Shown here: positions 43,201 to 46,161 of the stretch, in pieces
Layout: the number at the start of each line of letters is the position of its first letter
Position numbering within the stretch: the stretch's first letter is position 1
NCBI RefSeq assembly: GCF_054482595.1
Contig: NZ_JBTHVH010000006.1
Origin: a plasmid
DNA length: 46,161 nucleotides
Direction: 5' to 3' (one strand)
Position numbers: made by a program

Positions 43201-46161
43201 TCGCTATGACGCCATAAACAGGCTGATTGCGAGCGGCAGCTCCTGGAGCCAGATTCAAAAAGTGCTGGGTTGTAGCCGGGCGACTATCAGCAAAGCTGTG
43301 AAGCAACAGACCGTTAACAAAATGAACCATGAACCTGAAGGTAGGGAGTAGTTACAACATAATAAACAGTGTGTTGAAGAATAAAACTGATTCTTTATAC
43401 TGTATATGCATGGGTCTTCCCCGATCATGGTGGGAAGGCTCAGAACGCCATATTCAGCTTTCCGTAGTGGAACATCACCCCCAGTTTAAAGCGCTCCCGG
43501 TTTCGGTATCCCCTGGCTTTTATCCTCAGCAGCCTGATCTTGCTGTTAAGTGCCTCCGCATTTCCGTTTGAGACACTGTGTCGCATCGCATTCAGGATCC
43601 CGTACAGCCTTTTTCCTATCGTTTTCGCGGCATTTTTCATCATGGGAACGTCACTGTTAGCCGCCAGCGCCAACCATCTCTGCCAGTCACTCCGTCTTTC
43701 CTCGCTCCATGGCCTGTTCCAGATATCCTTTGCCAGCTCTTTCAGCGCCCAGCACTGGCTCGTCAGCTTCATCTGTGCACGCAGCCACATCAGCTTTTCC
43801 TGCCGGGATTCGGTCATCCACTTATCGCTGTACTGCCACAGGAAGCGGGTTCCTTTTGCCTGGTGTCGGCTTTCAACAGGGAGGTGCGGATGTTCATTCT
43901 GACGGGTTTTATCAACTACCTCGCCCAGTTGCTTCGCCACATGGAAGCGGTCAAAGGCGATTTTCTCAACCGCACTGGGTAAGTGGATACGCGCTGCTCT
44001 TATATAGCCCGCGTTCATGTCCATTGAGAGCGTTTTGATAGCCAGCAACTGCCCATCAGTGAGCGTGCGAAGATAGCCGGCAAGACTCTCTGTGCCGCGA
44101 TCATCCGTTAAGGCCAGCGCCCGACCATCGCGATCGGAGATCACCGTTATGTAACGATGTCCTTTTTTAAAGGCGACCTCATCCACATTCATATGACGGG
44201 CGGATAATGGCTTTTTTATCCGGGCAAGACCTCGCTTAACTGCCCGGGTCATAATGCCGTCAACCGCATTCCAACTGAGCTTAAGTTGCTTCCTGACAGC
44301 ATCAACGGTGCTGATTTTCAGCCATGAGAGAACGAACGATTCGAATAGCAACGTATACCGGCTTCCGGGGCCAGCCCACGGAACAGGCAACGTCAGGCAG
44401 CCATGCTCCGGACACATAATTCGTGGAACATCGGCTTCAACAATAGTGGTGAACTGGCAGGTATCAAGATGGCGCCATTTACGATGACGGTGATCGTGAA
44501 CAGAACAGGATTTACCGCAGGTCGGACAGGCTAGCCGGGTGTTTTCAGCGATCTCAATAGTGACAGTAACAGAACCGGCATTTTCATCGAGAGAAAGGGA
44601 CTTTACCTGCCACGGATCGGACAGGTTGAGAATATGAGCGTAGAGGGACTTTTCGTCCATGGCGGTGACCTCTGGCGATTAAATACACCATTATCATGCC
44701 TTCAGCCACCACAACAAGGGAAGACCCATATGCATACAGCTATATTGATCGGAGGTTTTTCATGCCTAGACACTATGAAATTGACTCAGCCTGGCGTGCG
44801 AGCATTAAGCGTGAGCCGAACGGTCGTCAGACAGTTACGACAGAAGCCTTTGTCAGCCAGCTTGCGCTGATTAATTTTCACTGGAGTTGTCGCCAAGCAA
44901 ATCAGTGGATTGAAACCTACGTGACCGTTTTTAAAGACATTTCCACTCAGGAAGGAGAGAACCGGACATTCATGCTTTTTAACCCCAACGGAGGCCGTTA
45001 AAAATGGGTTTTCCATCGCCAGCAACCGACTACCAGGAAAACAGGCTGTCACTCGATCAGCACTGTAATACAGGAGCGCCGGGAGTATTCTTTTTTCGAA
45101 GTGATACCTACTCTTTCCGGGAAGGGATAAAGCCTGGTGCGCTGCTCATAGTAGATTTTGGGGGCACGCCCGTTGACGGGTCTTTGGTGCTCTGTGTCCT
45201 GGAACAAGAATTCAGGATCATGCGATTGCGACTACACCCCAAGCGGTGTCTCCAGGAACTCGATAAGCTGGATAACTTCAGGGCTATACCTGATGACGAT
45301 GAGGACGGGTTGGAGGTCAGGGGGGTCATTACGCACATTGTGGCACTGTTGCAAAGTTAGCGATGAGGCAGCCTTTTGTCTTATTCAAAGGCCTTACATT
45401 TCAAAAACTCTGCTTACCAGGCGCATTTCGCCCAGGGGATCACCATAATAAAATGCTGAGGCCTGGCCTTTGCGTAGTGCACGCATCACCTCAATACCTT
45501 TGATGGTGGCGTAAGCCGTCTTCATGGATTTAAATCCCAGCGTGGCGCCGATTATCCGTTTCAGTTTGCCATGATCGCATTCAATCACGTTGTTCCGGTA
45601 CTTAATCTGTCGGTGTTCAACGTCAGACGGGCACCGGCCTTCGCGTTTGAGCAGAGCAAGCGCGCGACCATAGGCGGGCGCTTTATCCGTGTTGATGAAT
45701 CGCGGGATCTGCCACTTCTTCACGTTGTTGAGGATTTTACCCAGAAACCGGTATGCAGCTTTGCTGTTACGACGGGAGGAGAGATAAAAATCGACAGTGC
45801 GGCCCCGGCTGTCGACGGCCCGGTACAGATACGCCCAGCGGCCATTGACCTTCACGTAGGTTTCATCCATGTGCCACGGGCAAAGATCGGAAGGGTTACG
45901 CCAGTACCAGCGCAGCCGTTTTTCCATTTCAGGCGCATAACGCTGAACCCAGCGGTAAATCGTGGAGTGATCGACATTCACTCCGCGTTCAGCCAGCATC
46001 TCCTGCAGCTCACGGTAACTGATGCCGTATTTGCAGTACCAGCGTACGGCCCACAGAATGATGTCACGCTGAAAATGCCGGCCTTTGAATGGGTTCATGT
46101 GCAGCTCCATCAGCAAAAGGGGATGATAAGTTTATCACCACCGACTATTTGCAACAGTGCC

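Follow-up and report, generated by a model that had tools for sequence, protein, structure and literature searches.

The window analysed here is a whole IncX3 plasmid of the blaNDM type, 46,161 bp in length. The open reading frame at 45004..45360 on the plus strand encodes 118 amino acids and is composed of a 5' part of the HumD type and a tail encoded by IS26. The NCBIfam equivalog model NF051876 'HumD family' recognised its product with 158.2 bits (E = 9e-47, cutoff 120), the match spanning profile positions 1-115 of 129, whereas NF007621, the model of the autoproteolytic Pol V subunit, gave 70.7 bits and remained below its cutoff of 110. The score for Pfam Peptidase_S24 was just above the threshold (24.3 bits, cutoff 23.3), and the phmmer comparison with UmuD' structures gave E = 7e-14. 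The ORF is a genuine UmuD/LexA-type coding sequence and not a chance reading frame. The native part of its product is 100% identical to residues 1-113 of an intact 126-aa homologue (P0001) that is named 'HumD family translesion DNA polymerase' by NCBI; the RefSeq product name for the window gene is 'S24 family peptidase'. The AlphaFold model of the intact form had a pLDDT of 82.8, and the best Foldseek match of this model in the PDB was UmuD' 1UMU (E = 4e-7, target TM 0.79), with 8GMT, 1AY9 (UmuD') and then lambda cI and LexA as further top matches. The intact form is predicted from this model to adopt the UmuD'/LexA C-terminal-domain fold. Both the HumD family and the "delta-umuD" remnant are already known, and the remnant is well documented.

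The gene is present in two pieces. The 5' fragment (45004..45341, plus strand) holds codons 1-112 and the GT of codon 113, and the tail of the chimeric ORF (45342..45360, plus strand) supplies the G of codon 113, followed by ALLQS and a stop. IS26 begins with its inverted repeat GGCACTGTTGCAAA at 45342 and therefore encodes residues 114-118 (ALLQS) as well as the stop. The 820-bp IS26 (45342..46161, minus strand), annotated in identical plasmids, contains the transposase ORF with the DDE_Tnp_IS240 domain at 45394..46116 and forms one border of the resistance region that interrupts the gene. The 3' fragment, with the last 13 codons of the split gene, lies at 9289..9331 on the plus strand, where the last base of codon 113 is followed by TDARTGEFHEMPV and a stop; a 47-nt stretch here matches the intact gene of locus L010 exactly at its 3' end. 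The TGT at 9286-9288 is common to the end of the 5' fragment (45339-45341). A Tn2/Tn3-type 38-bp terminal inverted repeat, cttaacgtgagttttcgttccactgagcgtcagacccc (9248..9285, strand not assigned), which we take to be a Tn3-family terminal repeat, directly abuts the 3' fragment. The inserted resistance region comprises 45342..46161 plus 1..9285. The first-pass annotation described the gene as truncated by IS26; its 3' disruption is indeed at the IS26 junction, but the gene is split and not merely truncated, as its 3' end is retained elsewhere on the plasmid.

The comparison with intact homologues on related plasmids, suggested in that annotation, bore out the disruption: P0001 is identical over residues 1-113 and continues with its native tail where the window ORF ends ...THIV-ALLQS. 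Intact 126-aa copies were found on a few related plasmids with IncX3-type backbones, and the uninterrupted gene junction is kept in only 11 of the 999 PLSDB plasmids carrying this DNA. With the 680-bp stretch 44662-45341 as the query, 100% identity was obtained for hundreds of plasmid records. The C-terminal tail ND[AM]RxxEFDDxPV[IM] is conserved in 45 of the 74 short-type proteins; that it is family-specific is an observation of the present analysis and no published criterion. It was lost from the window ORF by disruption and is not natively absent. The Tn2/IS3000/blaNDM/IS26 resistance region split the gene at codon 113 and swapped the native tail for ALLQS.

Directly upstream lies orf79 (44762..45001, plus strand), a 79-aa gene whose product has a predicted winged-helix-like fold and whose stop is 2 nt before the humD ATG; the two genes would be co-transcribed. 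ISKox3, a member of the ISL3 family with ISL3 transposase domains (43412..44727, minus strand), is located in the centre of the predicted LexA operator of this operon. It is annotated in an identical-size plasmid, an 8-bp target duplication ATATGCAT is present on both of its sides, and IncX3 plasmids without ISKox3 match the window only from 44728 onward; pBIC-1b is an example of an IncX3 plasmid that lacks this element. To the right of ISKox3, the remainder of the LexA box (44728..44739, plus strand) consists of the second copy of the duplication and the ACAG half-site. The displaced promoter TTGAAG-16 nt-TATACT lies in the segment at 43375..43411 (plus strand), together with the left half-site of the LexA box, CTGT (43400-43403), and the first duplication copy (43404-43411). 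No CTG-N10-CAG was found close to the ORF when the window was searched, which is explained by the ISKox3-free locus L003, where the LexA box CTGTATATGCATACAG is uninterrupted. The promoter scan of L003 found a sigma-70-type promoter, TTGAAG/16/TATACT, overlapped by this predicted box. A perfect predicted LexA box, TACTGTATTTATATACAGTA, is present in the divergent plasmid locus L012; predicted boxes were also found in loci L016 and L018, and an AT-rich CTG-N10-CAG lies upstream of 84 of the 87 HumD loci. Likewise, P1 humD has an annotated LexA site, and humD has been described as LexA-regulated (PMC9603915).

No UmuC homologue was found in the window (tblastn of a UmuC, best E = 3.7) and no umuC in the annotation of the identical-size plasmid; the gene downstream of the intact copy is the dqlB toxin gene and not umuC. 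The ancestral operon consists of a predicted LexA box, the 79-aa gene and humD, in this order, and has no umuC. The insertion of ISKox3 split the box and parted the operon from its promoter, and no sigma-70-like site was found within 44600-45400.

The ORF starts at the UmuD cleavage site, as had been noticed by eye: in the phmmer alignment its M1-G2 corresponds to UmuD Cys24|Gly25. No in-frame N-terminal extension is possible, since a TAA occurs 8 codons upstream (44980-44982) and the stop of the preceding gene ends at 45001. M is the first residue of each of the 62 short-type homologues in the alignment, and GFPSPA comes next in at least 90%. The UmuD alignment, which begins at the cleavage-site glycine, and the upstream stops also uphold the proposal that the native form of the protein is UmuD'-like and already 'pre-cleaved'. 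HumD proteins are UmuD homologues made directly in the short 'UmuD-prime' form, their genes starting at the cleavage-site glycine codon, and removal of Met1 would, given the specificity of methionine aminopeptidase, leave the same N-terminal Gly as in RecA-processed UmuD'. Because the protein is synthesised already short, self-cleavage would be dispensable for it. That the gene is a normal umuD of full length with a lost or wrongly called 5' end, e.g., through the neighbouring ISKox3 only ~280 bp upstream of the ORF, would agree with the literature label 'umuD' or 'delta-umuD', but this explanation is scarcely credible. The MGFPSPA start after orf79 is also present in loci without ISKox3 and in 48-77%-identity relatives on other plasmids and prophages, a stop stands in frame 8 codons upstream, and the autoproteolytic UmuD model failed where the HumD model passed.

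The strings SDTYSF and FRIMRL, previously read where UmuD has GDSM and TVKKL, are both present in the translation, residues 29-42 being FFFRSDTYSFREGI and residues 67-79 EQEFRIMRLRLHP. For the general base, phmmer, hmmalign (with a profile built from canonical UmuD-like proteins) and hhalign agreed in placing Met73 (45220-45222) on UmuD Lys97. The alignment between the LLIVD and EF anchors is gap-free, and there is no gap ambiguity at this column. The 74 short-type proteins have R (31), M (17), K (10), V (7), Q (4) or C (4) at the Lys column, and K is found in 50 of the 65 long UmuD-types. Among close relatives the column is variable (M, Q, K, R, V), and phage HumD relatives kept Lys in 75 of 87 loci. 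Since these phage relatives mostly keep Lys, the loss of the dyad is lineage-specific and does not represent a family rule. A simple rule by which Lys is lost where orf79 is present or umuC is missing was rejected, as 27 of the 31 orf79-linked phage-locus copies keep Lys.

The nucleophile is less clear-cut. All three methods set Ser37 (45112-45114) on UmuD Ser60; a global MAFFT alignment of all hits, including multi-domain proteins, was very gappy, with a gap at the Ser column, and was replaced by hmmalign and hhalign. Whether Ser37 or Tyr36 falls on Ser60 depends on the position of a one-residue deletion. Profile scoring of every gap placement gave 18.1 for the Ser37 register and 17.5 for Tyr36 when the Ser column was included, and 16.4 and 16.8, respectively, when it was excluded. 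The two registers tie within one BLOSUM unit, the DSSP string of the AlphaFold model favours neither, and the catalytic position would be occupied by either Ser37 or Tyr36. Ser is found in column 37 of 53% (weighted) of the short-type proteins. The suggestion that the self-cleavage residues are lacking is therefore sustained for Lys, replaced by Met73 in three alignments, and less clearly for Ser, where all three placed Ser37 on Ser60 but the tied register has Tyr36. The alignment to UmuD does not show conserved Ser and Lys together at the catalytic positions, because Lys is absent.

A wholly non-catalytic protein, with both Ser and Lys absent, has in our estimate slightly less than an even chance. 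Lys97 is Met73 in any case, and a deletion before the serine would bring Tyr36 onto Ser60; this register matches DS-x4-GI of P1 HumD and S-x4-GI of the canonical proteins and is slightly ahead without the Ser column, but the agreement of phmmer, hmmalign and hhalign on Ser37 and the frequency of Ser in column 37 of the short-type proteins speak against it. Very improbable is an active S24 peptidase that cleaves itself, or host UmuD or LexA in trans. The RefSeq name, the Pfam S24 score just above the cutoff and the Ser that may occupy the nucleophile position according to hhalign would be in line with it; however, the general base is Met, the Lys column varies freely in close relatives, and the ORF possesses neither the N-terminal arm nor the cleavage site. 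Moreover, the K97A exchange is the standard means of blocking UmuD self-cleavage, and the full-length UmuD chain in the PDB structure 8GMT has Ala at Lys97. With the general base lacking, the likely chemistry falls short of what the RefSeq label "S24 family peptidase" implies.

We consider it highly probable that the ORF represents the remaining 5' part of a gene of the HumD family in the IncX3 backbone, of the pre-cut type and with Lys lost, whose product has a proposed UmuC partner and whose copy in the window is disrupted. The intact 126-aa protein would be expressed from orf79-humD, an operon of two genes whose sigma-70-type promoter overlaps with a predicted LexA box; because this box covers the promoter, induction by DNA damage is proposed. 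By analogy with P1 HumD, the intact protein would dimerise and partner host UmuC, and this partnership would yield a translesion polymerase that resembles Pol V but is spared the delay of RecA-dependent cleavage. For the IncX3 protein, we infer the association with host UmuC from P1 HumD only.

The 118-aa ORF itself is in all likelihood a relic that does not function or is poorly expressed, because it was struck twice: by ISKox3 in the operator and by the resistance region at codon 113. That the truncated chimera still works as a UmuD'-like subunit, having lost only the HumD-specific tail, is improbable. Its native part does reach UmuD residue ~135 of 139, and about a thousand successful plasmids have the truncated form; however, hitch-hiking with the resistance region explains this high frequency, the lost tail is conserved across the family (45/74), and the promoter and operator were cut off by ISKox3, with no sigma-70-like site in 44600-45400 to replace them. 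A role of orf79-humD as a LexA-controlled two-gene module that goes beyond supplying ready-made UmuD' to host UmuC is similarly doubtful. The features that suggest it are the winged-helix-like partner, the lack of the catalytic Lys and of an adjacent umuC, and the acidic tail EFDDxPV[IM]-COOH, which resembles the SSB C-terminal tip DFDDDIPF. If such a role existed, the module might, e.g., influence RecA filaments, partners of SSB or the SOS response of the host for plasmids and prophages.

Regarding the relic of the HumD-family gene, the consequences for the window itself are small; it is an ordinary, lysine-less member of a known family, broken by mobile elements. The gene is a well-known landmark ("delta-umuD") of IncX3 resistance plasmids, for which "humD-type, split" would be a better label. 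More generally, the Ser-Lys dyad is no longer retained throughout those UmuD homologues that are synthesised in pre-cut form. Candidates for effects on SOS mutagenesis in the hosts of these epidemic plasmids are the intact IncX3 protein, the 79-aa protein paired with it and the acidic tail.

Among the known systems, the 'delta-umuD' of IncX3 blaNDM and blaSHV-12 plasmids (pNDM_MGR194 type) is the window feature itself. The region is usually described as 'IS26-delta-umuD(-ISKox3)' (PMC4811927; PMC6952193), and in the relevant parts of these reports the gene is called umuD and the arrangement is listed; the HumD type, the change of Lys to Met and the location of ISKox3 in the LexA box are not remarked on in those parts. 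UmuD/UmuD', MucA, ImpA and RumA (NF007621) have the S24 LexA-like fold that is predicted for the IncX3 protein, with ~31-34% identity and the shared motifs GFPSPA, LLIVD and GVV(T/I)H. In contrast to them, the IncX3 protein lacks the 24-residue N-terminal arm and the Ala/Cys-Gly cleavage site, has Met for Lys97 and no umuC partner gene, missed the NF007621 cutoff, and in its intact form carries an extra C-terminal tail. The prototype HumD is a protein of phage P1, naturally short and UmuD'-like, and McLenigan and co-workers reportedly found in 1999 that it functionally replaces UmuD' with host UmuC. P1 HumD keeps the Lys (RIKRY) and the DS motif, in place of which Met73 and TYSF are found in the IncX3 protein; orf79, which precedes the IncX3 gene, is absent from P1, and the window copy, unlike P1 HumD, is split and has lost its tail. 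Nevertheless, both proteins belong to the NF051876 family, P1/P7 HumD being 48% identical to the intact IncX3 protein over the full length, and both start with MGFPSPA, i.e., at the UmuD cleavage site. Neither gene lies beside a cognate umuC, a predicted LexA box is located upstream of both, and the conserved acidic C-terminal tail ...DARxGEF..PV is present in P1 HumD as well as in the intact IncX3 protein.

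The ORF at 45004..45360 (+, 118 aa), which contains ...FFFRSDTYSFREGI... and ...EQEFRIMRLRLHP..., matched the Pfam Peptidase_S24 model with 24.3 bits (cutoff 23.3), and its phmmer comparison with the UmuD' chains 1UMU, 8GMT, 1I4V and 1AY9 gave E-values down to 7e-14. Judged from these matches, the ORF is a true LexA/UmuD-type coding sequence. With the NCBIfam equivalog NF051876 'HumD family translesion DNA polymerase', the ORF scored 158.2 bits, above the cutoff of 120, and covered positions 1-115 of the 129 in the profile; the model of the autoproteolytic Pol V subunit, NF007621, reached 70.7 bits, below its cutoff of 110. 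The gene is a member of an already named, experimentally founded family, HumD. For the intact homologue, an AlphaFold model (pLDDT 82.8) had its best PDB matches in UmuD' 1UMU, UmuD 8GMT and 1AY9, followed by the C-terminal domains of lambda cI and LexA.

In the phmmer alignment, the Cys24|Gly25 cleavage site of UmuD pairs with M1-G2 of the ORF. A longer N-terminus is impossible because of an in-frame TAA at 44980-44982, eight codons 5' of the ATG; the preceding gene stops at 44999-45001, and GGAGG lies 9 nt ahead of the ATG. The IS26 terminal repeat GGCACTGTTGCAAA starts at 45342, and therefore the final five residues (ALLQS) and the stop codon are IS26 sequence. The ORF reading, Pfam and phmmer confirmed the UmuD-like protein with altered catalytic-region motifs described in the first-pass annotation, and its start at the cleavage site, as a pre-cleaved form, and its disruption at IS26 were likewise borne out.

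The same annotation tentatively considered the catalytic dyad to be missing, which held for the lysine and was left ambiguous for the serine. There are no gaps between LLIVD (UmuD 71-75, ORF 47-51) and EF (UmuD 93-94, ORF 69-70), and Lys97 is occupied by Met73 (45220-45222) in the pairwise phmmer alignment, in the hmmalign alignment to a profile made from 46 long, canonical UmuD-like proteins and when hhalign compared 62 short-type with 32 long-type proteins, i.e., those starting at the cleavage site and those with the N-terminal arm. In 8GMT, the full-length UmuD carries Ala here, which fits the use of K97A, the standard means of blocking UmuD self-cleavage. Ser60 is occupied by Ser37 (45112-45114) in phmmer, hmmalign and hhalign alike. 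Between Phe53 and Gly65 of UmuD, HumD-type proteins have one residue fewer, and the assignment therefore depends on the gap position. When every gap placement was scored with weighted profiles, the best register with Ser37 on Ser60 reached 18.1 and the best with Tyr36 reached 17.5; with the Ser column excluded, the scores were 16.4 and 16.8, respectively. The registers tie at the sequence level, and the occupant is thus left as Ser37 or Tyr36. The first interpretation was largely correct, as regards the pre-cleaved form, the absent catalytic lysine and the disruption at the IS26 junction.

The variability of both columns was surveyed in whole-domain proteins from two sequence searches, aligned to the profile of canonical long UmuD-likes. 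In the Ser column, the 74 short-type proteins carried S (39), T (23) or A (4), and in the Lys column R (31), M (17), K (10), V (7), Q (4) or C (4), with S and K together in only six. Of the 65 long-type proteins, 48 had both residues (S in 51, K in 50), counts that are partly circular since S/K proteins went into the profile. Among proteins closely related to the IncX3 one, the Lys column holds M, Q or K. Lys is kept in 75 of 87 HumD loci, mostly phage and prophage; lysine loss is therefore a lineage feature, seen in the clade of IncX3-type plasmids and in a clade of Enterobacter prophages, not a HumD-wide rule. A tail, ND[AM]RxxEFDDxPV[IM]-COOH, is conserved in 45/74 short-type proteins and absent from UmuD; the gene split removes it from the ORF. 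In length and acidic-then-hydrophobic pattern it resembles the SSB C-terminal tip DFDDDIPF.

An intact homologue of 126 aa (P0001), named 'HumD family translesion DNA polymerase [Enterobacteriaceae]' by NCBI, was recovered by protein search; it is 100% identical across the native 113 residues of the ORF, ends in ...GVITHIVTDARTGEFHEMPV, and its gene order on IncX3-type backbones is rep - parA-like - resolvase - orf79 - humD. The humD 3' end persists in the window as an exact 47-nt match at 9290..9336; the fragment (9289..9331, +) corresponds to residues 114-126 and directly follows a Tn2/Tn3-type 38-bp inverted repeat (9248..9285). The entire resistance region (45342..46161 + 1..9285) therefore interrupts the gene at codon 113. 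TGT is present at both junctions (45339..45341; 9286..9288). The fragments adjoin different elements, IS26 next to the 5' part and the 38-bp repeat next to the 3' part, and share only these 3 bp instead of the 5-bp or 8-bp duplication expected from either element alone, which points to a subsequent rearrangement at one of the junctions. In some IncX3-type plasmids (H102-H105), the 3' match begins 11 nt further upstream, which indicates that the gene has a second, independent disruption junction. The humD 3' end faces a convergent gene for a DinQ-like type I toxin of 31 aa (9471..9566, -; annotated as dqlB in RefSeq). Some 130 bp 5' of the start of the toxin gene is a CTG-N10-CAG sequence, CTGTATTACCTGTCAG (9695..9710), a possible further LexA site.

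Hundreds of complete plasmids, many exactly 46,161 bp, match the 680 bases surrounding the ORF with 100% identity; they are typed as IncX3 and conjugative and come from Escherichia, Klebsiella, Enterobacter and Citrobacter. Given these matches and the annotated content of a record of identical size (blaNDM, ble, trpF, IS26, IS5, IS3000 and ISKox3), the window is a whole pNDM_MGR194-type IncX3 plasmid. The IS26 junction also occurs in the blaSHV-12 IncX3 plasmid pBIC-1b, and the uninterrupted humD junction is kept in only 11 of 999 PLSDB plasmids carrying this DNA. This plasmid region has already been described many times; the present analysis adds that the serine is ambiguous, where the 3' fragment lies, that ISKox3 struck the LexA box, that orf79 is a conserved partner and that the lysine varies across the family.

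In an IncX3 locus without ISKox3 (L003), a promoter (TTGAAG-16 nt-TATACT) 5' of orf79 overlaps a LexA-type CTG-N10-CAG box, CTGTATATGCATACAG. A divergent Salmonella plasmid locus (L012; HumD 66% and orf79 77% identical) has a perfect box, TACTGTATTTATATACAGTA, at the equivalent place; such boxes were also found in an Enterobacter prophage and a humD-umuC prophage, and an AT-rich CTG-N10-CAG lies upstream in 84/87 HumD loci. In the window, ISKox3 (43412..44727) is inserted exactly between CTGT and ACAG, at the centre of the LexA box CTGT-ATATGCAT-ACAG, the spacer being its 8-bp target duplication; the box halves with the duplication copies flank it (43400..43411 and 44728..44739). The promoter (43375..43402) is stranded beyond ISKox3, and together with the left half-site it now lies 1.3 kb from orf79-humD. 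The ISKox3 transposase gene faces away from orf79-humD, and a scan of 44600-45400 gave no sigma-70-like site. The window has no UmuC homologue (tblastn best E = 3.7; none annotated in the record of identical size), and an adjacent umuC occurs at only one of the surveyed HumD loci. On a metagenome prophage contig (L018, 4001..5658), a LexA box precedes the gene of a short HumD-type protein that keeps Lys (P0051), and a gene for a umuC-type Y-family polymerase follows directly and overlaps it; a cognate polymerase therefore does exist for some pre-cut UmuD homologues.

The 118-aa chimera is probably a relic, as the conserved tail is lost and the promoter is cut off; it may retain some function because nearly everything aligning to UmuD' is still covered. 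The intact protein would be SOS-induced, and removal of Met1 would expose Gly, as in UmuD'. As reported for P1 HumD, it would dimerise and, with host UmuC, make up a Pol V-like enzyme that needs no RecA-dependent processing. Across its full length, the window protein shares 48% identity with P1 and P7 HumD; with N15 gp26 and phiKO2 Gp23 the identity is 41-43%. The humD gene is under LexA regulation (PMC9603915), and the P1 record annotates a LexA site for it. P1 HumD reads DS-x4-GI and RIKRY; it retains a lysine, where the IncX3 protein has Met73, and under the Tyr36 register a serine as well.
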